Notes: generated from the letters alone by a model not told the origin. Shown: positions 6,927-24,278, numbered from the stretch's first letter. The stretch: DNA of 64,000 nucleotides from Paracoccaceae bacterium (GCA_041633555.1 JBFKFZ010000001.1:20259-84258); one strand, 5' to 3'. Numbers and translations are program-made.

Positions 6927-8314
6927 CCCGCATCCTCCCGTACCAGCACGATTTCGATCCGGCGGTTGAGCGCCCGGCCTTCGGCCGTGGTGTTGGGCGC
7001 GATCGGGTTCTTGTCGGCCCGACCCTCGGCCGACATCCGGCTGGGATCGTCGATCTCGCTCGCGAGCGATTTCATGACGGAAGTTGCCCGCGCCAGTGAC
7101 AGGTGCATGTTGGAGGGAAAGCGCGACGAACGGATCGGCACATTATCGGAATGTCCGACGATGATCACCGGACCTTTTTCCCCGTTCAGCGCCGAGGCGA
7201 CGCGCGACAGCGGAGTCGAAAAGGCAGTCTGCAACTGATCTGATCCCGAGGCGAACATGCCGGTGCCGACAATCCGCATGGTGATCGTATTGGCGTCCTG
7301 AAAGACCGAGACGATGCCCTCCTCAATCTCGTCCTTGAGGAACCCCTTGACCTGTTCCAGCTGCGTATCGGTCCGGACCGGTGGCTGCGGCGGTGGCGGC
7401 GCGCGGCGCAACAGCTCGGCGACCTTGCCGGTATCGAGAACCGAGAGCTGGCCCAGAACCCTCTCGGTCGCGCCCGACAGCAGATAGGACAGGGTCAGGA
7501 AACTGGCGGTTAGAAAGATCGCCACCGTCGCGGTCGTGATCCAGACCGGCTTCCACGCCGAGAGAGGCTGCAATGGCTTGTCGACGCCTTCCCAATGCGG
7601 TGACAGATCGCGTTCGACCACACTTCGTTGGGCGGCAATGATCCGGGCGAGGCCGGCACGGATCTGCATATGCTTGTCGCCGCCGCCCTGCTCTACCCTC
7701 AAGCGGCCCTGAAATCCTAGTGACAGGCACATGTAGAGAAATTCCAACAGGTCGATATTCCTGCCCGGTTCGGTTTCGAGCCGCGCCAGAAGATCGTAGA
7801 AGCGGTCGCCGCCAACGGTCTCGCGGTGGAAGGTGCCGACCATGGATTGCTGGGTCCAGACCGACTGTCCGCCCCACGGCGTGTTCAGAACGACGTCATC
7901 AAGCGTGGCGCAGATCGCGTAGCGGGCGACCTTGACATCCTGCGCGTCGATCCCGGCCTGCAGCGCGCGGTTCTCGAACCCGCGGACCTCTGCAACGACC
8001 GAGCGGCGCAACTTCTCGGGATCCATGTGCTGGGCACGGTTGCGGATGCGGCTGACGAGGGAAAACAGCGTAGCAGCGCAGGCATTGAGCCGGTTCATCC
8101 CCGTCATCGCCTGCTCGACATCGGGCGCAGCGGCGGTGTCCCGCGTGCGACCGCCGGACGGAACTCCTACTGCGTCATCCCTGGGGGCGATATCGGGCTC
8201 TGGCTCGGGCTTCGGCGTGGCGACTGGCGCGGGCGTGCGACGACCGCCGGGATTCGGCCTGATCACAGTCCGTTCGGAATCGTCCGGTTCCGCGAATGGA
8301 TCCTCGTCAGCCAT
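6923..8314 (-). CDS. tssL: T6SS TssL (DotU) with C-terminal OmpA/MotB peptidoglycan-binding domain
   Basis: DotU core ARYAICATLDDVVLNTPWGG...LEFLYMCLSLGFQGRLR, a TM helix, then an OmpA-like end HSDNVP...NRRIEIVLV. Confidence 0.9.
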   Translation of the reverse strand: MADEDPFAEPDDSERTVIRPNPGGRRTPAPVATPKPEPEPDIAPRDDAVGVPSGGRTRDTAAAPDVEQAMTGMNRLNACAATLFSLVSRIRNRAQHMDPEKLRRSVVAEVRGFENRALQAGIDAQDVKVARYAICATLDDVVLNTPWGGQSVWTQQSMVGTFHRETVGGDRFYDLLARLETEPGRNIDLLEFLYMCLSLGFQGRLRVEQGGGDKHMQIRAGLARIIAAQRSVVERDLSPHWEGVDKPLQPLSAWKPVWITTATVAIFLTASFLTLSYLLSGATERVLGQLSVLDTGKVAELLRRAPPPPQPPVRTDTQLEQVKGFLKDEIEEGIVSVFQDANTITMRIVGTGMFASGSDQLQTAFSTPLSRVASALNGEKGPVIIVGHSDNVPIRSSRFPSNMHLSLARATSVMKSLASEIDDPSRMSAEGRADKNPIAPNTTAEGRALNRRIEIVLVREDAG

Positions 8315-8350
8315 CGTCCAAAGTCCTTGCCAGTCCGTTCTCCGTGATCC

Positions 8351-9691
8351 TCAACCCTGCCGGATCGCCCACAACTCCATCTTCAGTCCCGGATAGTCGC
8401 CCGAAACATGCACCGCGATGCCGCCCGAAGTCGTCAGTTTGCCCCAGTACTTGCTGTCTCCATCCAGCTCAAAATAGACGACGCCCGCATGATAGGGGAT
8501 CTGCCTCGGCGCCACCGGCAATGGCCGCAGAGTTATCCCCGGCAGGGCCGAATTGACCAGTTGCCGGATTTCCTCAACCGGGCCGATCTTGGCCTGACCG
8601 GCGAAGTGCCGGCGCACGTTCTCTGCAGGGACATCGGCCGAGACCGCCAGCACGAAGCCCGCGGTCGAGATCAGCTTGCGATCCGCGATCACGCCGACGC
8701 TGATGCCGTATTTGCGTGGATCGAGCGGGATCGAGATCGCGGTCTGTTCCAGTACCGACGACAGATATTGCCGCAAGAGCTTGATCACCGGGTTGAAGGT
8801 CGCGGTCAGATCGTCGTGCTTGTAGGGTGGGAAATCGGGCGGATGTTTCTCATTCGTCATGAAACTGGCAAGCTCGCCCGCCAGCGCCAGGCACTCGGTG
8901 AAAAGCTGCACCGGGTGCAAGTTCTCGATCTGGTTGTAGTGATGGATCTTCGGCATCATGCGATTGACGCACATTAGAAGCAGGAAATCCGAGATCTCGG
9001 CCACGCCCTTGGTCGATCCGCCTTCCGACAGCCGCCCGGCAAGGGCTGTCATGCGGTGGCCGAGCAAACCGTCAAGCTCACGCAGAAAACCCTTGAGCGG
9101 CGGCGCGGCACTGACATCGAGGCAGGAGGGCATGAAGGATTTGTCGAGGATGATCTCCTGATCCGGGCGCATCTCGATGATCCGGGCGATCGGAATGACA
9201 AGCCGGTCCGACAGGTCATCGACCGCCAGCGCGAACTGCAGGCGCAACTTGCCGACGCCGACAGTGACCGCCTTCTTGCCGGTGCTCGTGACATCGGTGA
9301 TCTCAAGCTCCGCCGGCCGGAGCCGGGCGGCGGAAAGCTCCGCGCCCGTCATGTCGACCTCGAGTGCACCCTGCCGGCGCTGCGGCACCGACAGGTAGAC
9401 AACGCAGTCCTTGATCCCCTCGGGAACATCGAGCGCCGGGGGATGATCCTCTGCGGCCGGAACGCGGAATACCGTCCCGTCCTGCATCAGGCCCGAGCAG
9501 GATTTCAGGGCGAACTGCCCGACTTTCAGCACATCCTCGTCGATCTCGAGTGAACTGACGCCCCAGCCATAGGGCGAAATCCGTCGCGCCAGTCCCGAAA
9601 CGAGGCTTTCGGTGTAGCGGTCAGCCTGCTGAAAATGATGCGGCTGCAGAAACAACCCTTCCCGCCACAGCACCTTGCTGTCCCACGACAT
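8351..9691 (-). CDS. tssK: T6SS baseplate protein TssK (ImpJ)
   Basis: N-terminus MSWDSKVLWREGLFLQPHHFQQADRY is the characteristic TssK start; 446 aa. Confidence 0.95.
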   Translation of the reverse strand: MSWDSKVLWREGLFLQPHHFQQADRYTESLVSGLARRISPYGWGVSSLEIDEDVLKVGQFALKSCSGLMQDGTVFRVPAAEDHPPALDVPEGIKDCVVYLSVPQRRQGALEVDMTGAELSAARLRPAELEITDVTSTGKKAVTVGVGKLRLQFALAVDDLSDRLVIPIARIIEMRPDQEIILDKSFMPSCLDVSAAPPLKGFLRELDGLLGHRMTALAGRLSEGGSTKGVAEISDFLLLMCVNRMMPKIHHYNQIENLHPVQLFTECLALAGELASFMTNEKHPPDFPPYKHDDLTATFNPVIKLLRQYLSSVLEQTAISIPLDPRKYGISVGVIADRKLISTAGFVLAVSADVPAENVRRHFAGQAKIGPVEEIRQLVNSALPGITLRPLPVAPRQIPYHAGVVYFELDGDSKYWGKLTTSGGIAVHVSGDYPGLKMELWAIRQG

Positions 9692-9716
9692 CAGCGCTTT
9701 CCTTCCATCGTAGAAC

Positions 9717-11201
9717 TCATTTTAGCCTGTCCAGTTGTTCTTTGTAAGCACGCGCAAATTCCCGGGAAAACAGCTCTTGAAAGTCATTCTCGGCCTGATC
9801 GGAAATCTGCGCAAACATTTCTTTGTAAATATCCCAGTAGCGGGCCTTTTTCGACTTCAGCAGGTTGGCCAGACTGCTGTCGGAAGAAATTCTCTCTTCG
9901 AGAATTTCGGGATCGAGCCGGGCCAGCACGCCGCGCAGCGCTGCCTCCATCCCGGTCACCATTGCAACCTCATGCGCCTTGATGTCGGAAAGCGCCTGTT
10001 CGGCCGCATCGGTCGGATCGAGATAGCCCTTCGACCTCGGCCGGACCAGCGCCTCGACGGCCTGTTCCGGGCTGATCGAGAATTTCAGCGGGTTGTTGGC
10101 GCCCGAACTGATCTGGGTCTGTTCGATCCGGAATTCCGACTTGATCGAAGTGCGCGTCATCAGGATCTCTCGCAGGCCGTGGATCATGACGCGCAGGACA
10201 TGGCCCATGCGCTCCATTGTCGGCACGAGCGCCTCGTTCTCGAGCCGAAGGTCCTCCATTCCCAACGACTTGAGAAAGGCGCGCACCGCTGCATCATCTG
10301 CTCCGGTGGGTTCCCTTTGCTGCGGGACGGTGGGCTTCGGCGTTGGCGGCGCTGGTTTGGCAGGAGGCACTTCCGGTGTTGGGCCCAGTCCGGGGTCACC
10401 CAGTTCCTCGTCCTCCGGGATGAAGGCCGCGCCACCGGCGCCGGTCTGGGGGGTCGCCAGTCCTGGTTTGGCAAAGGGATCGTCGGATCGGGCCTCATTG
10501 CCTCCGACTTCCAGATCCCAGTCATCGGGAATCAGATTTGCGCCCCCGCCCCTGCCACGGGTGGCAAAATGGTCCTGCGACGCCGGCGAATGCGCCGACT
10601 GCGACGCGCCCTGCCGGGTCTCGGGATCATCCTCGAGCGGTGGCAGCAGATCGTCAGACTCACCCAGCGGCGGCAGTAGGCCGTCATCGCCAAGTTCCTC
10701 GCGCTTGACGCCCTTGGGACCGGCGGGAAGGTCGGAACCGCCCAGAAGCTCGTCAAGGAAGTCACCCTTTTCGGAGCCGCTGTCCAGCAGGTCCAATGCA
10801 TCGGGCGAAGTGCTGGCGTCGCCCGGCGAAACCCGGTCCTCAGCCAAAGGATCGGCGATATCGGCCATCGGATCGCGCGACTTGTCCGTCGTGATCTCGA
10901 CCAGAAGCTCGTAGGGTCCGAGGCTCAGGATATCGCCGTCGTTCAGCGGCGTCGGCGTGCTGCCGAGTGCGACCTTGCCATAATTCAGAAATGTGCCGTT
11001 CGTCGAGATGTCGACCACGACGACGTTGCCATTGTGGTCCTCGACGACGCAGTGCCGCTTTGAGAGCATGCGGTCCGGGTCCGGCAGGACCAGATCGTTT
11101 TCGTCACCCCGCCCGATCGTCAGGCTCGGCCCCCGCATCGGCACCGGCTCGCCTTTGCCGGGAATGGCGCCTGTGGATTGGAATCGCAATATGACGGCCA
11201 T
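9717..11201 (-). CDS. tagH: FHA-domain protein TagH/Fha (ImpI), target of the PpkA/PppA pathway
   Basis: N-terminal FHA domain (LTIGRGDENDLVLPDPDRMLSKRHCVV...STNGTFLN), a long Pro/Asp-rich linker and a conserved C-terminal TagH-type domain. Confidence 0.9.
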   Translation of the reverse strand: MAVILRFQSTGAIPGKGEPVPMRGPSLTIGRGDENDLVLPDPDRMLSKRHCVVEDHNGNVVVVDISTNGTFLNYGKVALGSTPTPLNDGDILSLGPYELLVEITTDKSRDPMADIADPLAEDRVSPGDASTSPDALDLLDSGSEKGDFLDELLGGSDLPAGPKGVKREELGDDGLLPPLGESDDLLPPLEDDPETRQGASQSAHSPASQDHFATRGRGGGANLIPDDWDLEVGGNEARSDDPFAKPGLATPQTGAGGAAFIPEDEELGDPGLGPTPEVPPAKPAPPTPKPTVPQQREPTGADDAAVRAFLKSLGMEDLRLENEALVPTMERMGHVLRVMIHGLREILMTRTSIKSEFRIEQTQISSGANNPLKFSISPEQAVEALVRPRSKGYLDPTDAAEQALSDIKAHEVAMVTGMEAALRGVLARLDPEILEERISSDSSLANLLKSKKARYWDIYKEMFAQISDQAENDFQELFSREFARAYKEQLDRLK

Positions 11202-11210
11202 ACGTCTCCT

Positions 11211-11513
11211 CTATCCGCCCGTCAGCACCGTGAACTCGCCCTTTACGATCGGGCCACCCAGCATGCACATGTCCTTCATCCGCAGCGCCGGCATCTTGTT
11301 GATCAGGACGGTGAACGAGCCGACCGGGAACATGTGCGGCGCGGGCGGAACCGGCGGTGAGCCGGTCAGCGCCATATCCATCAGCGCGCGGGCCGCAGGC
11401 AGCTTGCCGACCAGCACGGTTATCGCGCAAGGCGGCAGAATCGGCGAAGGGAACGGCGGTATCGGCACCGTGCAGGTGTGAATGTCCGTCATGCGGGCTT
11501 GTGGAAATCCCAT
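11211..11513 (-). CDS. PAAR-domain spike-tip protein (100 aa, no toxin extension)
   Basis: PAAR-like repeats (VLVGKLPAARALMD, VLINKMPALRMKDM). ATGA overlap with the upstream ORF. Located downstream of vgrG. Confidence 0.85.
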   Translation of the reverse strand: MGFPQARMTDIHTCTVPIPPFPSPILPPCAITVLVGKLPAARALMDMALTGSPPVPPAPHMFPVGSFTVLINKMPALRMKDMCMLGGPIVKGEFTVLTGG

Positions 11514-12124
11514 CAGACCTTTCCCTTGTCGCCGGCTGCTATCGCAGCCGCAAGCTGACCGTTCCCACCACGCGCGATATCGATGGCACGGTCAATAAGT
11601 AATTGCAAATGTGCATCAAAATCAGCGGCGGCAGACAAGGATATCATGTTCATGCCGAAAGCGCAGGAAGACACCGCGCCCACAGGAGCCGGATATTCCG
11701 CAAGATCGCCGGACCCCATATTGCCGGGGGCATACATCGCTGCGGTCGCGCAAAGCTCGGTATCGTCGTCGATATAGACATTGTCGAGCGACACCCGCGC
11801 GGCCTCGCGGTTCTTTTCGGTCGGATCGAACACCCAGGCCTCGCTGGCCTTGAGGCAGGGCGTGGCGTCCTTCTTGTCCGGACCGACCACGTCGCGGGCG
11901 GCGATGCAGGCCCACCAAACCGCCTCTCGCGCCGGCAGCGCGATGGCCAGCAGCCTCAGGATATCGACCCAGGCCGCCTTCTCGGCCAGTTCCCCAAGCA
12001 CCACTTCAACCGGTGCGCTGACAGGAGCTGAGACCGGCACCGACAGTTTCGTATGTACCCGCGCCAGCATCCGGGCGGCGGGCTCCTTGGGGATCTTCTT
12101 GAGGTCTACAAAGCGTTCCGACAT
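11513..12124 (-). CDS. Hypothetical 203-aa protein between vgrG and PAAR (possible adaptor or accessory protein)
   Basis: ATG at 12124 preceded by GAGG. Its stop overlaps the PAAR start (ATGA). No TM segment or signal peptide, and no family I can name with confidence. Confidence 0.6.
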   Translation of the reverse strand: MSERFVDLKKIPKEPAARMLARVHTKLSVPVSAPVSAPVEVVLGELAEKAAWVDILRLLAIALPAREAVWWACIAARDVVGPDKKDATPCLKASEAWVFDPTEKNREAARVSLDNVYIDDDTELCATAAMYAPGNMGSGDLAEYPAPVGAVSSCAFGMNMISLSAAADFDAHLQLLIDRAIDIARGGNGQLAAAIAAGDKGKV

Positions 12125-12132
12125 GTCCAGCC

Positions 12133-14274
12133 TCAATTGATCAGGGTCAGGCCGCCCTTGAGGGTCAGTATCGCGTCCCCCTTGACGGTGCTCATCGGCG
12201 CTTTGGCGGTCAGCATGGCGGAGCCTTCGACATTGATCATCGGCCCCTTGATCGTCACGCCCTGATTGTTGATCAGGATCGAGGACGGCCCGACCTTGAG
12301 TTCGATCGACTGCGCGGCAGTAACCTCGACCTTGCCCGCCGACGTGTCCAGAGTGAAATTGCCGAGGCTGATGGTGACCGCCTCATTGCCCCGCGAGACG
12401 TTCCGCGTGACGTTGCCCTCCTTGACGGTCTGGGCGTAGTTGCCGGTGATCTCCACCGTCGACGTGCCTTCGACAGTCTCGGCATGGTCGGTCTTGACGA
12501 AGACCGTCTGGTTGCCCTCCTCGACGGTGAAGATGTGATCACCGGTTTTGATCGTCTCGGTCTTGGTGTGATATATCGTCTGGGTCAGGTCGCCCGGATC
12601 CATCTTTTCCATGCCGATGGTGATCTCGGCATTGTTCTTGATGGTTTCCTTGTAATCCTTCTCGGACTGCAGGCGCACAAACTCCTCGTCGATCTTATCC
12701 TCGAATATGAGCTCGTTGAACGTGTCGGCGCTTCCGCCTTTCGTACTTCGCGTGACGATCCCGGTCTGGGTCATGTTGTCGGGCAGCTTGTAGGGAGGCA
12801 TCGTGTCGGCATTATAGACCATGCCGGTACAGACCGGCCGGTCGGGGTTGCCTTCCTCAAAGAGAATGACCACTTCCTGGCCGATGCGCGGGATCCAGAT
12901 CATGCCCCAGTTCTTGCCGGTCCAGGGCATCACGCAACGCACCCAGCAGGTCGTGTTTTCGTTGTTCTCGCCGTCCCTGTCCCAGTGGAACTGAACCTTT
13001 ATGCGACCGTATTCGTCGGTGTAGATCTCTTCCCCCGAGGGTCCCGTCACGATCGCGGTGTGGATGCCCGGGATTTCTGGCCAATGGGTGGTGAAGGGCG
13101 CCCGGAAAGGTTCGTTCTTCGGAATGACCTCGAAGAGGCAGCGATAGGCGTCCTTGTTCGACTCGTCGGCTTCCAGCCGCTCGTCGAGCATCTGGTTCGT
13201 CGTCTCTTCATCTTCATAGTCGGATTCGACCTGCAGCTGGTGCGTTGCTGCGATGATCAGAAACTCGGTCTCATCCCGGATTCTCGGATGATCCTTCAGC
13301 TTGAAGGTCTGGCCGTTGGCCATGTTGCGCACGTTGCCCGCTCCACGCCAGCGCTGGTGCTGGACCGCCTGGGCCTCCATCCGGACCCGCGTCTTGCGTT
13401 CCGCCGCCTCGTCGATCTTGGACATGTCGTGATCCTGCGGACTGTCCATGCCGTTTTGCCGAAGATGGCCGGGATAGTCGTAGATCTCATGACTCCTATG
13501 CGAATGAGTGCCCCTCTCGATCGACTTGGACTGTTTCAGATCCGCGTTCGGCCGGGAGAAATCGAAGTCGTCGATCGTGACCTTGCCGGGCGTCTGCCCC
13601 TCGACGGCATTCCAGTCGAAGATGTGATCGTCGGCACGCCGATAACCCCCGGTTTCGCGGAACTTGAAGGGAAAAACCGGGCCGCCCGGGGTCTGTTTGT
13701 GCGCGCCGATGCCATCGGCCAGCACCAACTTCTCTTTCTTGTCGACCTCGATGAAAAAGAAATAGATGCCCTCCTCCTGCATCAGGCGGCATAGAAAGTC
13801 GTAATCGCTTTCGCGATACTGCACGCAGTAGGTACGTGCGGGGTAGGTCTCGGTCAGCTTGTCCTCGAGGTCCGATCCGAAACCGTAAACTCCGAGTATC
13901 TCCTTGATGATCTCGGGCGTCGACTTCTCTTGAAATATCCGGCTGTTCTGACCGCGAGTCAGAAACCAGAAGAATGGCCGGACCTGCGCGATGAAATGCC
14001 CCATCCCCTGGGATAGGCCGATATATTCCGCCGAGACACAACGCCCGGTAAAGGTGCGCTCTTCATCATCAGGCGTGTCGAGACAGAGCGTTATCCGCGC
14101 CCCCACGACCTTCTTCAGCTCCAGCGTCTTGTCCTTGCAGACGAACTCGATCTTCGTCTCGGTCAGCTTGCTGAGCCCCTCCACGACCTCGGCACTTTTG
14201 ACAAAGAGGTTCTCTGCCGAGTAATCACCTTCCATCCGGAGATTTCGGTTCTCAAGCTCCAAGTCCGCAACCAC
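12133..14274 (-). CDS. vgrG: T6SS spike protein VgrG (TssI); start uncertain (GTG 14274 or 14283, or ATG 14235)
   Basis: gp27/gp5-like sequence (FFWFLTRGQNSRIFQEKS, WVRCVMPWTGKNWGMIWIPRIGQEVVILFEEGNPDRP) and C-terminal beta-helix repeats. GGAAAGG lies 9 nt upstream of the GTG at 14274. Confidence 0.9.
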   Translation of the reverse strand: MVADLELENRNLRMEGDYSAENLFVKSAEVVEGLSKLTETKIEFVCKDKTLELKKVVGARITLCLDTPDDEERTFTGRCVSAEYIGLSQGMGHFIAQVRPFFWFLTRGQNSRIFQEKSTPEIIKEILGVYGFGSDLEDKLTETYPARTYCVQYRESDYDFLCRLMQEEGIYFFFIEVDKKEKLVLADGIGAHKQTPGGPVFPFKFRETGGYRRADDHIFDWNAVEGQTPGKVTIDDFDFSRPNADLKQSKSIERGTHSHRSHEIYDYPGHLRQNGMDSPQDHDMSKIDEAAERKTRVRMEAQAVQHQRWRGAGNVRNMANGQTFKLKDHPRIRDETEFLIIAATHQLQVESDYEDEETTNQMLDERLEADESNKDAYRCLFEVIPKNEPFRAPFTTHWPEIPGIHTAIVTGPSGEEIYTDEYGRIKVQFHWDRDGENNENTTCWVRCVMPWTGKNWGMIWIPRIGQEVVILFEEGNPDRPVCTGMVYNADTMPPYKLPDNMTQTGIVTRSTKGGSADTFNELIFEDKIDEEFVRLQSEKDYKETIKNNAEITIGMEKMDPGDLTQTIYHTKTETIKTGDHIFTVEEGNQTVFVKTDHAETVEGTSTVEITGNYAQTVKEGNVTRNVSRGNEAVTISLGNFTLDTSAGKVEVTAAQSIELKVGPSSILINNQGVTIKGPMINVEGSAMLTAKAPMSTVKGDAILTLKGGLTLIN

Positions 14275-14305
14275 GATGACCACCCTTTCCGACGCTTCGC
14301 TCCAA

Positions 14306-14602
14306 TCAGTTGAGCGGTGCGTCAAATTCCAACAAATGATCGTCCCGGCGCAGCCGCTCGACGATCTCGGGATTGATGCCCCATAACGCAGCGAGATTGA
14401 CATCCTCGCCAAGGAACTGCTTCTGCTCGACTACCGTTGCGAAGTGCACGCAACGCACCGGCCGCGGAAAATTCCCGTCGCTCAGTAAGAGTTCATTGAG
14501 AAAGGCCTCTCCTTCGTACAGGTAGTAATGCGTCCGTTCCACAGAGATAAGCGTAATACGGTGGCCACCGCCGCCGCCGGGAAGGCCTTCAAAAGCATTC
14601 AT
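14306..14602 (-). CDS. Hypothetical 98-aa protein, translationally coupled to the sheath-like gene
   Basis: The ATG shares one nt with the upstream TGA (TGATG). Compositionally normal, no TM segment. Ends 22-31 nt before the probable vgrG start. Confidence 0.55.
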   Translation of the reverse strand: MNAFEGLPGGGGGHRITLISVERTHYYLYEGEAFLNELLLSDGNFPRPVRCVHFATVVEQKQFLGEDVNLAALWGINPEIVERLRRDDHLLEFDAPLN

Positions 14603-16383
14603 CACAGATCCTCTAGCAAAGCCGCCAACTCGGCATCCATGATATCATCATCATCGTCGTCGCCATTGGCGTCGTCCTCGTCGTCATCCTCGCCGAAGCT
14701 CGCCAGAAGTTCATCAAGCGAGCTGTCGGTCTCGTCATCCGCCTGGGATTCATCTTCTTCTGGCTCCGGTTCCGGCTCGGGCTCTCGCGGGGCGGGAATT
14801 TCTTCTTCAATCGTGATCACCGGCTGCAGCGGCTTGTGACGCTTGGGCTCGGGCGTCGCCCGCACCGCCTCGAGCGCGTCGGGAAGGACCGGCCTGCCCC
14901 AGGGCCCGGCAATCGGCACGCCGCTCAGCGCGTAGAAAGATCCGAGGCGGATCTCGTCGCGACCCTTGATCGACAGGACAGGCATTACGCCGCGCCGGGC
15001 GACAACCTCGATCTTGGAGGTGGTCAGGTTACGCTCGGTGCAAGGCAGCGCCACCTGATCGCCGTACCGGTCATTTATGTAGTGAAACGGAATGTCCCCC
15101 AGCGACATCACGCTGCCAGGCGACATCTCCGCGCCATCGTTGGTGTAAGTCCGCGCCAGAAGGATCGCGATCAGGACCACCGGGTTTGCCCAGAGCATGC
15201 CTGACAAGCCTTCCTGGTTGCTGAACTCCTCGAACTTGAAGGCGTAGATCGGGTCGGACTTCGCGCCATAGGGCCGGCGCAACATGAAGCGCGGCGTCGC
15301 AACCCCGAGATAGGCCGCCTCTGGCAGGGCCTGCAGCCGCTCCCATGCCCGCGAAACCAGCGGATGGCGCTTGCCCTCGGCAAGGTCCAGAAACCCCGGC
15401 GAGATCGCGGTGAAGAACGGCGAATCGACGTGAGCGGCCACCTTGGCGACCCGGCCGAGCAGTTCGGCATGCGGTGGCGTCTCCTCGAAGGTATAAAGCC
15501 CGAAGAGGGCAGAGAACCCGCCGGTGCCGGAGCCCGATCCTTCGCCGGTCGCGACCGCGTCGCGCAAGAGCGCGAAGAGCCCGCTCTCCGACAGATCGTC
15601 GCTCGCCGCCAGATCAATTGCGATTTCTTCGGCAGAGACATCGAACAGCACGACCTCCAGCGTCTCGTCGGTCTCGATGCTGCGGGCCAGCAGGTCGAGC
15701 GAGCGCCATTGCGACTCGACGGCCTGAAATTCCGGATGGTGCAGGATCAGCCGCATCGCCGAACCGAGCGCCTCATCGACCGCCGCCTTCATCGCCTCGG
15801 CGCCGGGATCGGGGGCAGCCACGATATGCGGCCCCACGACGCGCGCGATCAGATCGTCCGCGGGGCTCGCCTGCCGCAGCCGGGCCTTCGTGTCGCCGAT
15901 CAGCGCCTGAAAGTCGCTTAGCCTGCGATCGGCCGGCACTGCGGTGGCACCGGAGCGTTTCGGCAGCTTCAAGGTTCGGCCGAATGTCTCGCCCCAGCGC
16001 CGCAGTTCCTCTGACGCCTTTTCGACCATCGAGCCCGTGCCAAGCCGCTGCCGGAGCGCTGATAGCGCCTGGAACATCTCGACATTGTCGTAAATCTCAT
16101 CCGGGTGCAGATCGTCGAGACCGCCAAGCTTCACCTCGATCCCGGACCCGTCCTTGCCGGTCGGCAGGATCAGCGTGGTCGCGAAATCCTCGATGACAGC
16201 CTCGATCGTATCGACGTCCAACTGGACCGGCCGGCGATTGGCCAGCGCCTCACCAGTCTCGATCACGCCATTTGCCGACCGGCCGGTGAAATCGCCGAAG
16301 ACCCCGATGCGAAACCGCGTGCGAACCGGCGGATCGGGCCGCGCGAATGGTATCCTGCCGAAAGCGGGGATCCGGTCGCTCAT
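14602..16383 (-). CDS. Fused TssB-like/TssC-like sheath paralog lacking the TssC C-terminal domain, with a Pro-rich then poly-acidic tail
   Basis: N-terminus (VRTRFRIGVFGDFTGRS...VQLDVDTIEAVIEDF) parallels TssB (RVQIEYDVELYG...FMEIDVDNFDERM). The middle (LILHHPEFQAVESQWRSLDLL; LYTFEETPPHAELLGRVAKVAAHV; ATPRFMLRRPYGAKSDP) parallels TssC of this same locus. Tail is EPEPEPEPEEDE...DDDDDD. Confidence 0.8.
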   Translation of the reverse strand: MSDRIPAFGRIPFARPDPPVRTRFRIGVFGDFTGRSANGVIETGEALANRRPVQLDVDTIEAVIEDFATTLILPTGKDGSGIEVKLGGLDDLHPDEIYDNVEMFQALSALRQRLGTGSMVEKASEELRRWGETFGRTLKLPKRSGATAVPADRRLSDFQALIGDTKARLRQASPADDLIARVVGPHIVAAPDPGAEAMKAAVDEALGSAMRLILHHPEFQAVESQWRSLDLLARSIETDETLEVVLFDVSAEEIAIDLAASDDLSESGLFALLRDAVATGEGSGSGTGGFSALFGLYTFEETPPHAELLGRVAKVAAHVDSPFFTAISPGFLDLAEGKRHPLVSRAWERLQALPEAAYLGVATPRFMLRRPYGAKSDPIYAFKFEEFSNQEGLSGMLWANPVVLIAILLARTYTNDGAEMSPGSVMSLGDIPFHYINDRYGDQVALPCTERNLTTSKIEVVARRGVMPVLSIKGRDEIRLGSFYALSGVPIAGPWGRPVLPDALEAVRATPEPKRHKPLQPVITIEEEIPAPREPEPEPEPEEDESQADDETDSSLDELLASFGEDDDEDDANGDDDDDDIMDAELAALLEDL

Positions 16384-17249
16384 GCCTTGTCACCGCGCAT
16401 TTCGGCCAGTTCAGCGCGCAGGGCGCGTATCTCGTCGTGCAATTCCATCACATGGGCATCGACCTGATCGGTCTCCGACTTGACCAACTCCCGCAGTTTC
16501 CCGAACTCCTGTTCGGCCTCTTCCTCGACCGCCGCCTGCATCGTGTTAACAAGGAGGCCGATGAAGAGGTTCAGCACCGAGAATGCGGTGACAATGATGA
16601 AGGGTACGAAGAACGCCCAGGCATTCGGAAACTCCTGCATCACCGGCCGCACGATCCCCATCGACCAGCTTTCGAGCGTCATGATCTGGAACAGCGAATA
16701 GAGCGACCGGCCGAGCGTGCCGAACCAGGCGTCGAACGCATTGCCGTACATGATCGTCGCCATCACGCCAAAGACGTAATAGACGATCGAGAGCATCACG
16801 ATGACAGCACCCATGCCGGGCAGCGCGTCGAGAAGGGCCTGCACCACGGCACGCATCTGCGGCACGACCGAAAGCAGGCGCATGGCCCGGATGACGCGCA
16901 GACCGCGTAGTGCCGAAAGGCTGTCGGTTTGCGGCAAGAGGCCAACGCTGACCACGAACAGATCGAAGATGTTCCATGCGTTGCGGAAGAAGCCAAGCCC
17001 ATAGGCATAGAACTTGAGCAAGAGCTCGATCACAAAGATCGTCAAAACGGTCTTGTCGATGACGTAGAGCGCCCCGCCAAAATTTGCCTGAATTCGGTCT
17101 GATGTGCCCAGACCCAGCGTGATTGCGTTGAATATGATCACGCCGAGAATGCCGGTCTGCACCGCATTTGTTTCCAGCCAGGCGCGCAGCCGCGCCCTGT
17201 GATGGGTTTCTGGCGCTTGCTCCATTTCTTGTTCCATCGATCTGTCCAT
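16380..17249 (-). CDS. Bacterial voltage-gated sodium channel (BacNaV, NaChBac/NavAb family)
   Basis: S4 with Arg at every third residue (LRGLRVIRAMRLLSVVPQMR), selectivity filter FQIMTLESWSMGIVRPV, S6 and a C-terminal coiled coil. ATGA overlap with the next gene; start 21 nt after the clpV stop. Confidence 0.9.
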   Translation of the reverse strand: MDRSMEQEMEQAPETHHRARLRAWLETNAVQTGILGVIIFNAITLGLGTSDRIQANFGGALYVIDKTVLTIFVIELLLKFYAYGLGFFRNAWNIFDLFVVSVGLLPQTDSLSALRGLRVIRAMRLLSVVPQMRAVVQALLDALPGMGAVIVMLSIVYYVFGVMATIMYGNAFDAWFGTLGRSLYSLFQIMTLESWSMGIVRPVMQEFPNAWAFFVPFIIVTAFSVLNLFIGLLVNTMQAAVEEEAEQEFGKLRELVKSETDQVDAHVMELHDEIRALRAELAEMRGDKA

Positions 17250-17270
17250 GCCTTTCTCAGGCCCCTCTAA

Positions 17271-19982
17271 TTACTCGAAACTATAGGAAAACTCATTATC
17301 AGTCACATCTATCGCCACTTTCGTGACCTCGCCTCCCTCCAGCATCCGTTTCAGGAATTCCGCCGAGATTTCAGGCAGCATCGTGTTGGTGACGATCGCG
17401 TCGATCATCCGGCCGCCGCTTTCCAGCTCTTGGCAGCGGTCGACGATCGTCTGCACCACCGCGTCGCTATATTCGAACGGCACCTTGTGGCTTTGCATCA
17501 CGCGCTTGCGGATCCGCTCAAGCTGCAACACCGTAATCTTGCCGATCATCTCGGGGCTAAGCGGGTAATAGGGGATCGTCACCAGCCGCCCCAGCAGGGC
17601 CGCCGGGAAAATTTTCAGCAGCGGCTCGCGCAGCGCCTTGGCGATGCCCTCAGGCTCGGGCAGAAGGTCGGGATCGGCGCAGAGATCCATGATCAGGTCG
17701 CTGCCCGCGTTCGAGGTCAACAGGATCAGCGTGTTCTTGAAGTCGATCGTTCGGCCTTCGCCATCCTCCATCACGCCCTTGTCGAAGACCTGAAAAAAGA
17801 TCTCGTGCACATCGGGATGCGCCTTCTCGACCTCGTCGAGCAGCACCACCGAATAGGGCTTGCGCCGCACTGCCTCGGTCAGCACGCCGCCCTCGCCATA
17901 GCCGACATAACCCGGCGGCGCGCCCTTCAGGCTGCTGACGGTATGGGCTTCCTGATACTCGCTCATGTTGATGGTGATGACATTCTGTTCGCCGCCGTAA
18001 AGTACCTCCGCCAACGCCAGCGCCGTCTCGGTCTTGCCGACACCGGACGTGCCCGCCAAGAGGAAGACGCCAATCGGCTTCGAGGGGTTGTCGAGCCCGG
18101 CGCGGCTGGTCTGGATCCGCTTGGCGATCATCTTCATCGCGTGATCCTGACCGATGACGCGCTGGGCGAGACGATCTTCCAGTTTCAGAATCGTCTCGAT
18201 CTCGTCCTTCACGATGCGCCCGACGGGGATTCCGGTCCAGTCGCCGACGACGCTTGCAATTGCTTGCGCATCGACGATCGGCAGGATCAGCGGGTCCTCG
18301 CCCTGCAGTCTTTCCAGTTCGGCATTCTTGGCTTTCAACTCATCCAACAGCCTGGCGCGCGCCTTGGCATCCATCGGGCTGGCCTCTGCAGCGGCTTCGC
18401 TGTCCGCCTCGGGCGCATCGACCGGCGCGCCTCCGGCACGCAGTTGCGCGCGCAGATCGAGGATCGCCTCGACAACGGCTTTCTCGGCCTCCCAGCGACT
18501 GTTCAGCCCTTCCAGCCGCTTTTCCTCGGCCTCTTTCAGACTGGTGATCGTGCTCCGCCGCTCCTCGACCTCATAGCCCGCGGTTTCGTCACGCTCTATG
18601 ATCTCCAGTTCGGTCGTCAGGGCGTCGATCCGCTTGCGGGCATCGTCGACTTCCGCTGGCACGGCGTGCTGTGAAACCGCTACCCGCGCACAGGCGGTAT
18701 CGAGGACAGAAACCGATTTGTCGGGCAATTGCCGCGCCGGGATATAGCGCGCCGAGAGAGTGACCGCCGCTTCGATTCCCTCATCGAGAACCTGCACCTT
18801 GTGGTGCTTCTCCAGCATCGTCGCGATGCCGCGCATCATTAGCTTGGCCTTCGGAATGTCGGGTTCATCGACCGCGATCACCTGGAACCGGCGGGTCAGG
18901 GCCGGGTCCTTCTCGATATGCTTCTTGTATTCGGCCCACGTCGTCGCGCCGACGGTGCGCAGGGTCCCGCGCGCCAGCGCGGGTTTCAGCAAGTTCGCGG
19001 CATCGCCGGTGCCCGCTGCACCGCCGGCGCCCACCAAAGTATGGGTCTCGTCGATGAACATGATGATCGGTGTGGGCGAGGCCTGAACCTCGTCGATGAC
19101 GGCGCGCAGGCGCTTCTCGAACTCTCCCTTCATCGACGCGCCGGCCTGCAGCAGACCGACATCGAGCGCCAAAAGACGCGCATCATGCAAAGCGGGTGGG
19201 ACATCGCCGCGGGCGATCCGCAGCGCAAACCCCTCGACCACGGCGGTCTTGCCGACCCCCGCCTCTCCGGTCAGGATCGGGTTGTTCTGGCGCCGCCGCA
19301 TCAGCACATCTACGATCTGGCGGATCTCTTCGTCGCGTCCGACGATCGGGTCGATCTCGCCCTTCCGCGCCTGTTCGGTCAGGTCGGTACAGAACTGCGA
19401 CAGCGCCTCTTCCTTGCCCATCACCGCGGGTGCGGGCTCGCCTCCATCCGCGCGCGCCTTCGCAGCACTCCCGGTGGCTGACTTGTCCTGCGGCGTCATC
19501 CGGTCTTCGGGTGAGCCATCCGTGATCTTGTGAAAGTCGTCGGCCAGATCGTCGGCCTTGATCCGGGCGAGTTCGGGCGACATCGAGGACAGGATGTTGC
19601 GCAGGTTCGGGGTCTTCAGCATGCCGAGGATCAGATGGCCGGTGCGCACCTGGTTTGAAGAATAGAGCAGCGACCCCCAGACCCAGGCCCGCTCCATCGC
19701 ATCCTCGAGATGGCCCGACAGATCGCTGACCGCCGTCGCCCCGCGTGGCAGCGCGTCCAGAGCGGCGGTCATCTGCGTTGCGATCTTCGATGGGTCCAGA
19801 TCATATTGCCGAATGATCCGATGGATGTCGCTGTCCTGGCCGTTCAGGATCTGGTGGATCCAGTGCACGATCTCGACATAGGGATTGCCGCGCATCTTGC
19901 AGAATACGGTCGCGCTCTCAATCGCCTGATACCCCAGCGAATTCAGCTTCCCGAATAGCGCGACACGGCTGATCTCTGTCAT
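17271..19982 (-). CDS. clpV: T6SS AAA+ ATPase ClpV (TssH)
   Basis: 903 aa with two AAA+ modules ([18 protein letters not shown]) and the ClpV-type N-domain start [24 protein letters not shown]. Confidence 0.95.
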
Positions 19983-19998
19983 CTTCGTCGTCCTTCCT

Positions 19999-21060
19999 TC
20001 ATCCCTGTCCCGCAGCGGCGCGCGGGACCTCGACCGGTGCGAGTTCCATCATGCCCGCTTCAAGATACAATTCGTCCGCATCACCGGTGCGCTCGCCGCG
20101 ATCCATCCAGCTGACATGACCCAGCTGCGTGTTTTCGCCGACAACCGATGGCGGCACCTCGTCTGCCTTCAGGATCAGGTTAACATCCCAGTCAAGCGCC
20201 GGGCCGACATAGGAACGCACGATCGCCGCCAGCCGGCGCTGCGATGGCGTGCCCGGCAGCAGGCGCTTGTATTCCTCGAGACTGAGCGGCCCGATCCGCA
20301 GGCGGAACTTGACATTGCGGCTCCAGACCTGATTGCCGATCGAGGTCTCCTGCCCCAGCCCGCTCTGGCTGCCAAGCTCCCAGCGGTCTTCGGGCTCTAG
20401 CTCCAGCCATGTTCCGACGAACTCCACGACTTCCACCCTGGCATCGAAGAAAGCCGAAAGGATCGAGACGAGGCCTTCCGCATTCTTCGGCCCCTGCGCC
20501 AGAAGGCCCGCGAAATGCCGCTTGGCGACATCCGGAAACTCGTCGCGCTGGCGCAGGTTGCTGCCATGATAGCCGGCGATAGCGGCAACCTTCCGTTCAA
20601 AGAGGTCATTGTCGCCTCGATCAAAGCTCGGCGCGGGCTGGCCCGACGACCAGGCCCTGTAGAATAGCGACATCAGCCGGTGCGTCAGCATGTTGGCAAA
20701 AGCCACGAACGTGTTGTCGCGGTGGTTGCGTTGTCGGTCTCGCGCATATTCGGTCAGATGCAGCGGCAGCGGGCCGTGCGGGCCGAAAAGGCCAAAGAAG
20801 CGGTTGATCAGCCGCGAGGGTGCGCCGTTCCTGCCTTCTTCAAAGCTACGAATCGTCGAGGGCGGAAAGGACAGCTCCGCCTCCTGCCCCAGCCGCACCT
20901 TGTCCTGTCGCGGCCGGCGGCTTTCACCAAGTCGCGGCGTGTCCTTGTATGTTGCCTCGATGATGCGAAGCGCGTGAAAGATGTGATGCTTCTCGGGAGT
21001 GCGGGCAAGCTGCGCGAAATGCGTCAGATGACCCGGCCGAGACCGACTTTCGGACGCCAT
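19999..21060 (-). CDS. tssG: T6SS baseplate protein TssG (ImpH)
   Basis: FHALRIIEATYKDTPRLGESRRPRQDKVRLGQEAELSFPPSTI is typical of TssG. Overlaps the tssF 3' end by 37 nt. Confidence 0.9.
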   Translation of the reverse strand: MASESRSRPGHLTHFAQLARTPEKHHIFHALRIIEATYKDTPRLGESRRPRQDKVRLGQEAELSFPPSTIRSFEEGRNGAPSRLINRFFGLFGPHGPLPLHLTEYARDRQRNHRDNTFVAFANMLTHRLMSLFYRAWSSGQPAPSFDRGDNDLFERKVAAIAGYHGSNLRQRDEFPDVAKRHFAGLLAQGPKNAEGLVSILSAFFDARVEVVEFVGTWLELEPEDRWELGSQSGLGQETSIGNQVWSRNVKFRLRIGPLSLEEYKRLLPGTPSQRRLAAIVRSYVGPALDWDVNLILKADEVPPSVVGENTQLGHVSWMDRGERTGDADELYLEAGMMELAPVEVPRAAAGQG

Positions 21061-22898
21061 CTTGCGATTTCTCCGCGCTGTTGGGTGACAAGCACCGTTT
21101 CGGTGAAACTGTTGATCGACACGTATTTGCGGAAGAACTGCTCCAGCACGGATCCCAGCAGGTAGACGCTGGTGCCTTCGAAGAAGCTCTCGTCGAATGT
21201 CAGCTTGATCTCGAGCCCACGCACCGCCGTCGACAGGACCTCGTCTGCCATGCGCCGGACGATCGGGCGGCTCGAGACACCGACCATCCCTTCCATCTGC
21301 TTTTCGATCACCCGGTCGCCCGCCGGGGCGTAGATGCCGATCAGTTCTCGCAGCGCCTCCGCACCTCCTTTTTCGGTTTGCACGACCGACAGGTAGTTGA
21401 GGCTCAAATGGCTGATAAGGCGCCAGGCCGTGTCGCCCTGCGACAGCGTCGGGCGCGGTCGCGTCGGACTGATCGGGGTGCTAATATGTGCTACCGGACC
21501 GCCATCGGGCAGGTGAAACACATCCTTGGCCCCGGTCGCCAGCAGAAGCGGCAGATCGCGGTTGGTAACCATTGCCGAGATCGCCAACTGCCCCAGATCG
21601 GTGCCGTAAGGGGCCTGCATCGGATCGACCAGTGACACGTAAAGTTCGGAGCCGAGATATGAGGTCCGCACACCCTTCAGCCGCTCTTTCTCGGTACGTT
21701 GCCGCATCGTGCGATGCTGCGTGTAATAAGCGGGATGGCGTTCGCCGGCTGCCGTGAAATCGGTCGCGGAATAGAATGCCCTGAAGGGCACGTCATCCTC
21801 GCCCTCGGCGCTGATCCCGGTCACGGATTCGATCGAGTATATCTCGAAATCGAGTGGCGCCGTGCGGTCGGCCACGACATGCTGCTCGATATCGCTGGTC
21901 GAGATATGCACCCGGTCACAGCGCTTCGGGAAGAGGTTCACGGCCGGCGTCGCGTTCAGCGTGAAGGCATCGGGCGTGATGCCCTGCGCGATATCGGACC
22001 GCCCGTCCCTCAGGAGGATGTAGATATCGACATCCGCCCCCTTCGCGCGCCCCAACGCCAGCGACAGGCCGCGCAGATCGACGAAGTGGAACCGTTCCGG
22101 CATCGCGAAATATTCCTGCAGCAGCCGATAGCCGTCGAAGGACCGGCGCGGCGTCGGCAGCAACGCCTCCTCGCGTGAGAAACCGCGTGGAACGACGGCG
22201 CCTTTCGGCAGATGCACTGACCAGTCGGCCCGGCGATCCGTCGACCGTCCGACGAGCCCCGTCACCTCGGTGCAGAGCATTTCGTGCAGCGCCCAGTTCT
22301 GGCCCTCCTGGGCATCGAGAAACAGCGTCAGATCGTCGAGCGCCAGATCCGCGATGGGCTGCCCGCCATGCCGCTGCAACCGCAGACGGATCCCGGCCCG
22401 CGCCTCGACATCGCGGCTGATACCAGCAGCGGTCAGCGCGCCGCGGCCGTCGATATATTCGGCTTCAGTGATCTTGATCGGCCACATCGTCACCGTATGG
22501 GCGGTGCGAAACGTGCAAGGGGTCTTGTCGTCATCGGCCAGCTTGCTGCGCAGCACGGTGTTGCGCGGCACCACATATCCGTCGACCAGCGCGGCATTCT
22601 GCATGTCGGGCTCGAACTCCGCGACCATCATCGACGGGGTCGGTGCGAGGTAATGCGGATAGACGATTTCCAGAAGGTGGCTGGTCAGAGCAGGGAACTG
22701 CATTTCCAGTTCCAGCTGGACGCGGGCCGAGAGAAAGGCGACACCCTCAAGAAGGCGCTCTATATAGGGATCGTGAACCTCGACCCCATCCATCCCGAGG
22801 CGAGATGCGATCTTGGGATAGGCTTCGGCGAATTCGCTCCCCATGTCGCGCAGGAATGCCAGTTCGCCCTCGTAATGTTTCAGCAGCCTGGTATCCAT
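21024..22898 (-). CDS. tssF: T6SS baseplate protein TssF (ImpG)
   Basis: MDTRLLKHYEGELAFLRDMGSEFAEAYPKIASRLG is the canonical TssF N-terminus; 624 aa. Confidence 0.95.
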   Translation of the reverse strand: MDTRLLKHYEGELAFLRDMGSEFAEAYPKIASRLGMDGVEVHDPYIERLLEGVAFLSARVQLELEMQFPALTSHLLEIVYPHYLAPTPSMMVAEFEPDMQNAALVDGYVVPRNTVLRSKLADDDKTPCTFRTAHTVTMWPIKITEAEYIDGRGALTAAGISRDVEARAGIRLRLQRHGGQPIADLALDDLTLFLDAQEGQNWALHEMLCTEVTGLVGRSTDRRADWSVHLPKGAVVPRGFSREEALLPTPRRSFDGYRLLQEYFAMPERFHFVDLRGLSLALGRAKGADVDIYILLRDGRSDIAQGITPDAFTLNATPAVNLFPKRCDRVHISTSDIEQHVVADRTAPLDFEIYSIESVTGISAEGEDDVPFRAFYSATDFTAAGERHPAYYTQHRTMRQRTEKERLKGVRTSYLGSELYVSLVDPMQAPYGTDLGQLAISAMVTNRDLPLLLATGAKDVFHLPDGGPVAHISTPISPTRPRPTLSQGDTAWRLISHLSLNYLSVVQTEKGGAEALRELIGIYAPAGDRVIEKQMEGMVGVSSRPIVRRMADEVLSTAVRGLEIKLTFDESFFEGTSVYLLGSVLEQFFRKYVSINSFTETVLVTQQRGEIARWRPKVGLGRVI

Positions 22899-22904
22899 GA
22901 TGCC

Positions 22905-23405
22905 TCAGAGCACCCTTTCCAGTTTCAACTCGCCGGTGGTGATATCCACCTCGGAGCGCAGATAAAGCTCGAGCGGCAGGGGCTGCGCCCACATGTCGGC
23001 GCGAATGTCGAACGTGATGATTGTTTCGCGGTTGTTATCCATACCCGCGCGCAACTCGACATCTATCGAGCCCTTGCGAATCCGCGGCTCAAACCTGTCG
23101 ATCGCGCGGTGGATCGATTTACGGATCAGTTCGGCCCGCTCCAGCGTCGAATAGTCGCCGGCAACCTCGCGCACGCCGAAATTCAGCACCGATTCATGCA
23201 CATGTGGGTACCGGTCCGCGTCGATCAGCGTGGCATTGTTGCTGGTGTTCAATAGCCACGAGAGATCCCGCTCGATGATCTGGCGCAGTTCGCGCAAGTC
23301 GATGACCCGCGCCTCCCGCGCCTCGGACTTGGTCTGCGGATCGGTATCGGTGAGCCGATCCAGCAACGACGGCTGCAACCGTTCAGAGACTGCAACGTCA
23401 GACAT
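22905..23405 (-). CDS. tssE: T6SS baseplate protein TssE (gp25-like)
   Basis: LQPSLLDRLTD motif, 166 aa. 8-nt overlap with the tagJ 3' end. Confidence 0.9.
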   Translation of the reverse strand: MSDVAVSERLQPSLLDRLTDTDPQTKSEAREARVIDLRELRQIIERDLSWLLNTSNNATLIDADRYPHVHESVLNFGVREVAGDYSTLERAELIRKSIHRAIDRFEPRIRKGSIDVELRAGMDNNRETIITFDIRADMWAQPLPLELYLRSEVDITTGELKLERVL

Positions 23406-24195
23406 TTTGCGGACCCAACCTCAGCGAGCGAACGTCCATCAATGCCGTGTCGCCCTGGTCGGTAGTGAACAGCCGCTGCCCCGAACCGACAAAGGTTTCA
23501 TATCCCACATCGGACCAGGTTGTAGATCGGGCGAGCAGTTCTGTCGCGACGCCGCCCGCTGTCGTGCCGGCATAGCGCGTCGGGATCAGCACCACGACCT
23601 CGCCGCCATTTGCAAGCTTCAGAGTCCCCGGGGTCCAGACGAGATCGCGCAGGTCAGACGGATCTTCGAATGTAAGTGAGGAGATGGCATCGAACGGCAT
23701 CCAGAAATATCGACCGTTCACCACCACTTCCAGCAGCGGGCCGAGCCGCATGTCGGCATCGGCGATCCACTCGAACGGTTCGCCGTTCAGCGTTCCCGAG
23801 ACACCCGGCGCGGTATCGAAAGCACGTGCGCGCAGGTCTGCCGCCTTATCGGCCTTGCCCGCCGCCAGGGCCTTCATGGCCTCGATCATCAGCGCGATCC
23901 ATTCCTTCGGCTCCCCGAAGATCAGCGGTTCCTTTTCTCCCGCGAAAACCCTTTCGCGATAGACCTCGCAGACGATGCCTTCCCGATAGGTCTGGGCCAT
24001 CGGAACCGCTTGCGGATCCATTTCGCCGCAGAGCTTCAGCTGCGTGATCGCGCGTTTCCAGTCGCCCTTCACGCAGAGCAGCTGGAACAGGAAGATCCGC
24101 AGCTTTGGATTGGCTGCATCGGCGCGCACCGCGTCCTGCAGGGACGACAGAACACCATCCAGATCGCCGGATTGAAGGAGTTCTTCCGCCTGCAT
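23398..24195 (-). CDS. tagJ: T6SS accessory protein TagJ (ImpE)
   Basis: TPR-like N-terminus (AEELLQSGDLDGVLSSLQDAVRADAANPKLRIFLFQLLCVKGDWKRA) and ImpE C-terminal motifs (RYFWMPF...LRDLVWTP...PTRYAGT). Confidence 0.85.
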   Translation of the reverse strand: MQAEELLQSGDLDGVLSSLQDAVRADAANPKLRIFLFQLLCVKGDWKRAITQLKLCGEMDPQAVPMAQTYREGIVCEVYRERVFAGEKEPLIFGEPKEWIALMIEAMKALAAGKADKAADLRARAFDTAPGVSGTLNGEPFEWIADADMRLGPLLEVVVNGRYFWMPFDAISSLTFEDPSDLRDLVWTPGTLKLANGGEVVVLIPTRYAGTTAGGVATELLARSTTWSDVGYETFVGSGQRLFTTDQGDTALMDVRSLRLGPQNV

Positions 24196-24221
24196 CTAAC
24201 GCCTCCGCACAATTGCAGGAG

Positions 24222-24252: not shown

Positions 24253-24278
24253 CGATCTTTGAGAAAGCAACAGGCTGT

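Follow-up and report, generated by a model that had tools for sequence, protein, structure and literature searches.

What is a voltage-gated sodium channel doing among the genes of a type VI secretion system (T6SS)? The question is posed by a stretch of 64,000 nucleotides (nt) from a Paracoccaceae bacterium (GCA_041633555.1 JBFKFZ010000001.1:20259-84258; the whole stretch is called the window here), in which a gene of 289 amino acids (aa) for a BacNaV-type voltage-gated Na+ channel lies at 16380..17249, on the minus strand, inside a T6SS cluster that occupies 3342..27974 of the same strand. A preliminary description of this DNA had placed the gene at exactly these coordinates, had left out its strand, and had proposed a coupling of Na+ influx or membrane depolarisation with T6SS assembly, with its firing or with self-protection. 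As far as comparative evidence can tell, channels of this subfamily belong to the T6SS of Rhodobacterales as a conserved accessory component, and the conserved unit is, by synteny, not the channel on its own, which is what had been described, but the pair formed by the channel and a sheath-like protein, this partner usually being giant. What the pair does can be stated with less assurance; the reading that we prefer, to which we give roughly one chance in two, is that the channel would convert membrane depolarisation or Na+ entry into a change in the assembly, holding, firing or recycling of the sheath, by way of the sheath-like protein.

As regards the identity of the gene, the open reading frame (ORF), its translation, Pfam, the matches to solved structures and the orthologues all point the same way. 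The reading frame belongs to the minus strand, a plus-strand reading of 16380-17249 being rejected because that translation has stops. A single Ion_trans domain (PF00520) covers residues 32-243 of the 289 (E=3e-38), and in a search of solved structures residues 16-257 match NavMs (5hvx, E=6.2e-77) and residues 16-278 match NavAb (3rvy, E=2.1e-68), in agreement with the BacNaV identity first put forward; an NCBIfam search of the channel matched nothing. The voltage-sensor domain, formed by segments S1-S4, is found at 16872..17168 (minus strand; about residues 28-126), and includes the S4 helix LRGLRVIRAMRLL (16872-16910, minus strand; residues 114-126), whose four arginines, one at every third position as had been described, are retained in 70 of 70 complete orthologues. 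D65, F72, E75, K79 and D96 of the sensor are invariant among the orthologues, and the first three of these, together with D96, we take to be, from what is known of NavAb and NavMs, the countercharge and aromatic residues of S2-S3 that pair with S4.

The pore loop FQIMTLESWSMGIVRPV (16641..16691, minus strand; residues 187-203 of the translation) contains the selectivity filter TLESWS (16662-16679, minus strand; residues 191-196), the TLESW signature likewise having been recognized beforehand. The motif FQ[IVL]MTLESWS appears in 73 of the 74 sequences extracted, the remaining one ending at a contig edge, and the segment T191-P202 is invariant in 69 aligned sequences. A cytoplasmic neck and a C-terminal helix follow (16383..16541, minus strand; residues 237-289), with a motif, LRxLVxxETDxVD, that is conserved within the clade and of which E259, T260 and D261 are invariant in 43 sequences. 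The coiled coil that the preliminary description gave to this C-terminus as a fact is better called a predicted one: the AlphaFold2 (AF2) model of the channel monomer has an unbroken helix over residues 211-286, with a predicted local distance difference test (pLDDT) of 85-92 over 251-280 and an overall predicted template-modelling score (pTM) of only 0.44, and the conserved hydrophobic residues at 263, 267, 270, 274, 277 and 281 keep a heptad-like 4-3-4-3-4 spacing, which suggests such a structure. The fold of the channel is already settled by homology, and the ORF is, by the presence of all the sequence-level features of BacNaV, an intact gene for a voltage-gated channel with a Na+ filter. 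Its exact start is uncertain because the N-terminus is not conserved, and the public gene call begins at Met5, giving 285 aa. We take the product to work, in all probability, as a one-domain voltage-gated Na+ channel, one that belongs to a BacNaV subfamily of its own.

The founding member of BacNaV is NaChBac. Like NavMs and NavAb, the channel of the window would be made of one subunit of some 280 residues with six transmembrane segments, four S4 arginines and a long C-terminal helix after S6; its pore loop FQIMTLESWSMGIVRPV is one residue apart from the aligned NavMs stretch FQVMTLESWSMGIVRPV, and its S4-S5 linker reads MRAVVQ where that of NavMs reads MRRVVQ. The main difference between the clade of the window's channel and these two models is a fixed position inside a T6SS cluster; the neck motif that is conserved within the T6SS-linked clade is a further one. 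Nearer at hand, NaVSp1 of Ruegeria pomeroyi and NavSulP of Sulfitobacter pontiacus belong to the same bacterial order and the same channel family, and the inward current of the latter is a typical one, half-activated at -31 mV (PMC3337986). The S4-S5 linker of NaVSp1 bears R114, R116 and R117 (PMC7125111), three arginines in contrast to the single one in the invariant PQMRAVVQ of the T6SS-linked clade, and a search with the C-terminal region of a Sulfitobacter channel linked to a T6SS did not retrieve the crystallised C-terminus of NavSulP (3VOU), even at E<=10. Judged by the linker arginines and by this C-terminus, the parts that were compared, the channel is apparently not an orthologue of NaVSp1 or NavSulP. 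Both appear to be other BacNaV paralogues, and if they belong to other groups of the family, a separate general-purpose channel may therefore exist in roseobacters.

How constant is the association of this gene with the T6SS? The survey of related loci was anchored on TssF rather than on the channel, with one genome per species (GTDB), and took in the best 80 of 260 relatives, all of them Rhodobacterales with a TssF 69-96% identical to that of the window, lineages below ~69% being sampled on plasmids only; the closest TssF relative among these best 80 is that of a Brevirhabdus sp. metagenome-assembled genome (MAG), at 96%. The channel was scored by tblastn with the proteins of the window, and a locus was considered assessable if it contained a complete tssH and enough downstream sequence (n=69). 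An orthologue of the channel, 66-88% identical to the copy in the window, is found downstream of tssH and on the same strand in 67 of these 69 loci; the 67 represent 25 named genera. Absence of the channel from related loci was the outcome set beforehand as a refuting test for the preliminary description, and what was found is presence in nearly all of them. The two remaining loci, on a Pseudosulfitobacter plasmid (L072) and in an Actibacterium MAG (L076), are without the channel and also without the sheath-like gene, tssH being directly followed by vgrG. The TssC proteins of this pair are the most divergent of the set (76-78% identity, versus 83-98% in the other survey loci).

Further loci repeat the arrangement. 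Plasmids of Qingshengfaniella, Leisingera and Ruegeria have an annotated "ion transporter" between tssH and a gene similar to a "sheath large subunit", and look-ups anchored on the channel led to a Pukyongiella chromosome and a metagenome contig of the Joint Genome Institute (JGI) (L088, L089) with an identical gene order and an identical 4-nt overlap. The sole broken copy found is the frameshifted channel of Parasedimentitalea marina W43 (plasmid pW43D, 1344-8987), next to which the sheath-like ORF is in pieces and the annotated vgrG and PAAR genes are truncated in comparison with their tblastn matches; in this plasmid the channel and its T6SS neighbours appear to decay together.

The junctions in the window are equally tight. 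From the clpV stop (17271-17273) to the ATG of the channel (17247-17249) there are 21 nt (17250..17270, minus strand), containing GAGAAAGG, a spacer that would lengthen to 33 nt with the start at Met5. At the other end, the stop of the channel (16380-16382) and the ATG of the sheath-like gene (16381-16383) share the overlap ATGA (16380..16383, minus strand), which suggests that the two genes are translationally coupled. Both junctions agree with those first reported, as does the common strand from clpV to vgrG, all the genes from tssA to tssM being on the minus strand. An isolating promoter or terminator, another sign by which the preliminary description might have failed, was also looked for, and consensus scans of the coding (minus) strand from clpV to vgrG revealed no terminator-like or promoter-like site. 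The channel is most likely transcribed together with clpV.

The overlap with the sheath-like gene is general: of 68 related loci, 59 show an overlap of 4-32 nt between the end of the channel gene and the start of the ORF that follows (4 nt in 33, 8 nt in 16). In most genomes (L001-L003 and most of L008-L086) this ORF has 1000-1700 aa, and the layout of the long form comprises a complete N-terminal copy of TssB, an acidic region, a module that is TssB-like and TssC-like, and an acidic tail. The acidic region holds 7-23 L[DE]xLL motifs, and Asp and Glu account for 20-37% overall. In L002, where the ORF runs from 12827 to 17791, the TssB copy is 81% identical to the resident TssB and has been missed by annotation, with a RefSeq start at 13679; no DNA tandem repeats were found in the acidic region of this gene, the repetition existing at the level of protein motifs only. 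Some of the long-form members carry the JGI name 'FimV'.

The window, in common with L007, L011, L039, L044 and L059, has a short form (573-632 aa) from which both the TssB copy and the acidic repeats are missing. Its gene (14602..16383, minus strand; 593 aa) matches Pfam VipA (1e-07) and VipB (2.8e-41), VipB_2 being absent, and the protein combines a TssB-like N-terminal part with a TssC-like fold that is 29% identical to the window's own TssC; NCBIfam returned sheath models only, with scores under their cut-offs. The AF2 model (pLDDT 75.7, pTM 0.78; residues 498-582 disordered) retrieves with Foldseek the TssC1/VipB chains of solved sheaths (5n8n_B, 3.5e-16), with template-modelling scores of 0.5-0.58 by target. 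An acidic tail, SSLDELLASFG...AELAALLEDL, is kept in the short form. A loose resemblance exists between the acidic LDxLL motifs of the sheath-like protein, its tail included, and the ClpV-binding N-terminal helix of TssC, and these motifs might mimic that helix. This helix binds ClpV in other systems (PMC5048182), and in TagJ-class systems the recruitment of ClpV may run via TagJ and TssB (PMC4239648).

The conservation of the channel is unevenly distributed. Among 69 orthologues, mean column conservation is 0.99 in the S4-S5 linker, 0.91 in the pore and 0.80 in the neck, then 0.75 in the voltage sensor, 0.63 in the C-terminal domain and 0.27 in the N-terminus. The ratio of nonsynonymous to synonymous substitution (dN/dS) is 0.03-0.13 in close pairs, with a median of 0.215 (for the window's channel against that of L007, dN 0.087 and dS 0.848), and by this measure the channel is under purifying selection. 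Its mean pairwise identity, 72%, may be set beside the 73% of TssF and the 66% of TssG. Compared as distance matrices, the channel and each of TssF, TssH, TssG and TssC give r=0.57-0.62 (Mantel p<=0.001, n=62), and the core T6SS genes among themselves give r=0.69-0.85; judged by these correlations the channel co-diverges and is inherited with the T6SS cluster.

Beyond the order, an exhaustive search of 1.84 billion cluster representatives gave 15,378 relatives of the channel, among which, at 50% clustering, only two representatives stand for the T6SS-type channel, with scores of 429 and 416 bits, and the scores then drop to 281 bits, at 49-53% identity; it is because of this fall from 416 to 281 bits that the channel can be treated as a discrete subfamily. 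Homologues of 48-49% identity on Peteryoungia and Skermanella plasmids stand among unrelated genes, outside T6SS loci. TssC matches were also obtained on plasmids of Rhizobium (40), E. coli (16), Rahnella (11), Sinorhizobium (5) and Burkholderia (5), and the 41 plasmid records with a channel match include no plasmid of these genera. Two relatives depart from the common form: a 425-aa protein of the representative library (P0241) has an extra N-terminal S1-S4 voltage sensor ahead of a complete channel, and a 72%-identical cluster representative (P0242) has the filter TLEGWSD in place of TLESWSM, which could alter the ion selectivity.

How, then, might a channel serve a secretion system? According to the preferred reading, a tetramer of the channel would be located in the inner membrane, where a depolarisation of the cell, caused for example by envelope damage or by an incoming pore-forming toxin, would open it and allow Na+ to enter from Na+-rich surroundings. 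The signal, whether voltage or Na+, would reach the T6SS tail through the sheath-like protein made at the same time, which would join or cap the TssB/TssC sheath, and in this way the electrical state of the membrane would come to tune assembly, firing or recycling by ClpV. The effect on T6SS activity, the direction of the signalling and the contact between the channel and the sheath-like protein are the parts that we infer from sequence.

Several points weigh against this proposal. The surveyed loci share ancestry, and 67 out of 69 is not the same as 67 independent events; one ancient insertion, followed by operon inertia, would yield identical synteny. In L072 and L076, which may be a sister lineage, the module is absent and the core genes tssC through vgrG are still present, and the module is therefore accessory, not core. 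One locus of the survey (L061) has the channel and no sheath-like gene, while a plasmid of Eleftheria terrae (L087) has, at 14001-15779, a 38%-identical homologue of the sheath-like protein after tssK in a Burkholderiales T6SS, with neither an ion channel nor a tssH in the 29.5 kb viewed; since each of these holds one of the genes alone, the pair must be regarded as usually coupled, not as strictly interdependent. We know of no read-out of Na+ influx in any T6SS, and finally, the cluster already possesses a PpkA/PppA/Fha phosphorylation pathway by which it could be regulated. As a detail of the Eleftheria terrae T6SS, four hcp genes occur in tandem.

An alternative explanation, possible if on the whole unlikely, is that the channel is a passenger, a gene with a general role in the Na+ cycle, motility or pH homeostasis, such as those reported for NaChBac-type channels in Bacillus, that entered the operon a single time and has been kept through inheritance of the operon as a block. 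All the positive loci belong to one T6SS lineage and one order, so that a single insertion could suffice; the cluster moves on plasmids, the channel looks like a standard BacNaV with no extra domain, and the two loci without it have kept their core genes. However, if so, the position, the strand and the stop-start overlap would have to have been maintained by inertia over ~25 genera, at identities of the channel down to 66%, and the channel would have had to co-diverge with the core genes. Moreover, the channel and the sheath-like gene have been lost jointly in L072 and L076, and the only pseudogenised channel adjoins fragmented T6SS gene calls. The general role itself may be taken by a separate channel, given that NaVSp1 and NavSulP appear in other BacNaV groups.

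A second alternative, which we consider improbable, is that of a structural anchor, in which the tetramer would mainly dock the sheath-like protein, and this would stop, hold or cap the sheath in the manner of TagA/TsmA, conduction being secondary or irrelevant. There are precedents for such a function, as TsmA/TagA and TsmB/TagB connect the membrane with the sheath or with TssA and set the time for which the sheath is kept extended (PMC13584744), and by analogy a comparable role of the channel with the sheath-like protein is possible. The translational coupling with a TssC-fold protein, the complete TssB copy of the long forms, which could insert into the sheath, the motif conserved by the clade in the cytoplasmic neck, and the lack of a second ImpA_N-domain protein among the cluster proteins scanned would all be in keeping with it. 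What a pure anchor would leave without explanation is that the intact filter, the gating charges and the S4-S5 linker, needless in such a molecule, are the most conserved parts of the channel; in addition, L061 has the channel without the partner to be docked. An anchor strictly of the TagA type was rejected, the defining ImpA_N domain being absent, according to Pfam, from both the channel and the sheath-like protein.

The remaining alternative concerns toxins, and arises from the variable slot between tssH and the channel, the distance between the two being 4 to 3293 nt across loci. In many of the loci L001-L003 and L008-L086 the slot holds one or two genes (for example, L002:10624-11910), of the families F0 (~411 aa, 27 loci), F1 (~335 aa, 23 loci), F2 (~360 aa, 7 loci) and F3 (402 aa, 3 loci). 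In F0 and F2, which are helical and rich in Lys and Ala, a hydrophobic hairpin occupies the centre of the protein, and both families could consist of membrane-active effectors; compared with Pfam at a relaxed threshold, F0-F3 produced nothing above noise. The slot of the window is empty, as it is in ~20 other loci in which the channel is kept. The window having none of F0-F3, the channel is therefore independent of them.

Pore-forming toxins of the T6SS, among them Ssp6 and VasX in addition to Tse4, also tie the system to ion flux and membrane depolarisation, with the difference that they are secreted toxins, have immunity genes as counterparts and exert their effect in the prey, whereas the channel is a conserved, six-transmembrane resident of the producer. 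In the 67 positive loci of 69 the channel is always upstream of vgrG, and the place next to it, where a small immunity gene would be expected of an effector, is taken by the sheath-like gene. Consequently, a secreted pore-forming effector or an immunity protein was rejected, on the grounds of conservation, of topology and of the presence of the channel in loci without a candidate toxin gene. That the channel cooperates with membrane-active effectors from the slot, or gives protection from them, is very improbable, for although slot genes are found in many loci, the hairpin of F0 and F2 is like that of membrane-inserting toxins, and ion-selective pore-forming T6SS toxins such as Tse4 are known (PMC12169545), the window and ~20 other loci keep the channel with no slot gene, the channel is conserved where effector-immunity pairs vary between strains, a Na+ channel activated by depolarisation would worsen and not relieve the damage of a depolarising toxin, a six-transmembrane channel is implausible as secreted cargo, and F0-F3 match no known family.

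Returning to the coupling of the channel with the sheath, a stronger version of it would make the voltage-gated channel the trigger or gate of the contractile injection machine, in such a way that a depolarisation of the producer's inner membrane, caused for example by the attack of a neighbour, would open the channel and, through the tethered sheath-like protein, start or license firing. We regard this version as speculative and rather unlikely; if true, it would amount to an electrical tit-for-tat circuit, and would assign to this subfamily of BacNaV a definite function in the physiology of the cell. BacNaV channels serve as major structural models of the sodium channels of eukaryotes, and to our knowledge their role in bacteria has scarcely been established outside alkaliphilic Bacillus; here, a whole subfamily of them is tied to one cellular machine. 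The timing of T6SS firing is an active topic, and a conserved voltage-gated channel made together with a sheath-fold protein hints at an input, electrical or ionic, not considered so far. The hosts include culturable marine roseobacters (Ruegeria, Leisingera, Phaeobacter, Sulfitobacter) with a T6SS that is often on a plasmid, and experiments are therefore feasible.

With respect to what has been published, the preliminary description knew of no T6SS that includes an ion channel, and this holds in the open-access papers and bioRxiv, where no ion channel linked to a T6SS cluster was found, although a report in a subscription journal is possible. A 2026 review of T6SS accessory factors makes no mention of an ion channel, sodium, voltage, membrane potential, TssC-like or TssB-like, and the accessory sensors that it treats act through kinases, lipoproteins or TssA partners (PMC13584744). 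A lineage of T6SS that combines a voltage-gated channel with a sheath-like protein in one conserved module is thus apparently undescribed.

A known parallel is the TagQRST-PpkA-Fha threonine-phosphorylation pathway of the Pseudomonas H1-T6SS, whose accessory genes, according to the 2026 review, guide assembly toward the places where the membrane is damaged or attacked (PMC13584744). In the window, too, there are a PpkA-like kinase, a PP2C phosphatase and an Fha protein. The Ser/Thr kinase gene (33-1943, plus strand) and the phosphatase gene (1946-2923, minus strand) lie at the left edge of the window, beside tssM, and their combination with TagH, which is an FHA protein, suggests a phosphorylation switch of the PpkA/PppA type; TagQRST genes were not seen among the cluster proteins scanned. 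The fold of the channel is unrelated to those of this pathway, and the signal that is proposed from the genes would be electrical or ionic rather than a phosphorylation.

As for the cluster itself, Pfam assignments and ORF coordinates give the following order, all of it on the minus strand: tssA (27974-26946), tssB (26884-26357), tssC (26353-24860), hcp (24797-24279), tagJ (24195-23398), tssE (23405-22905), tssF (22898-21024), tssG (21060-19999) and tssH/clpV (17271..19982), the gene of the sheath-recycling AAA+ ATPase (Pfam AAA_2, AAA_lid_9 and ClpB_D2-small), directly upstream of the channel. The channel and the sheath-like gene are succeeded by the spike gene vgrG (12133..14412; Phage_GPD, 2.5e-80, and Gp5_trimer_C), a DUF6931 gene (11513-12136), a PAAR gene (11211-11513; PAAR_motif), tagH (11201-9717), which encodes the FHA protein, tssK (9691-8351), tssL-OmpA (8314-6923) and tssM (6926-3342). 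TssA is the sole ImpA_N protein among those scanned, a second one of the TagA/TsmA type not having been found there.

Upstream of tssA there are two ORFs without a family match, at 28181-29329 and 29326-30225 (minus strand), and farther away two large ones without a Pfam match, at 34301-37186 (plus strand, 961 aa) and 37931-41638 (minus strand, 1235 aa). Between these pairs lie a gene for a caspase-like protein (31506-33056, minus strand) and one for an OmpA-like protein (33150-34232, plus strand); the Qingshengfaniella cluster (L001) is likewise bordered by a gene of the caspase family.

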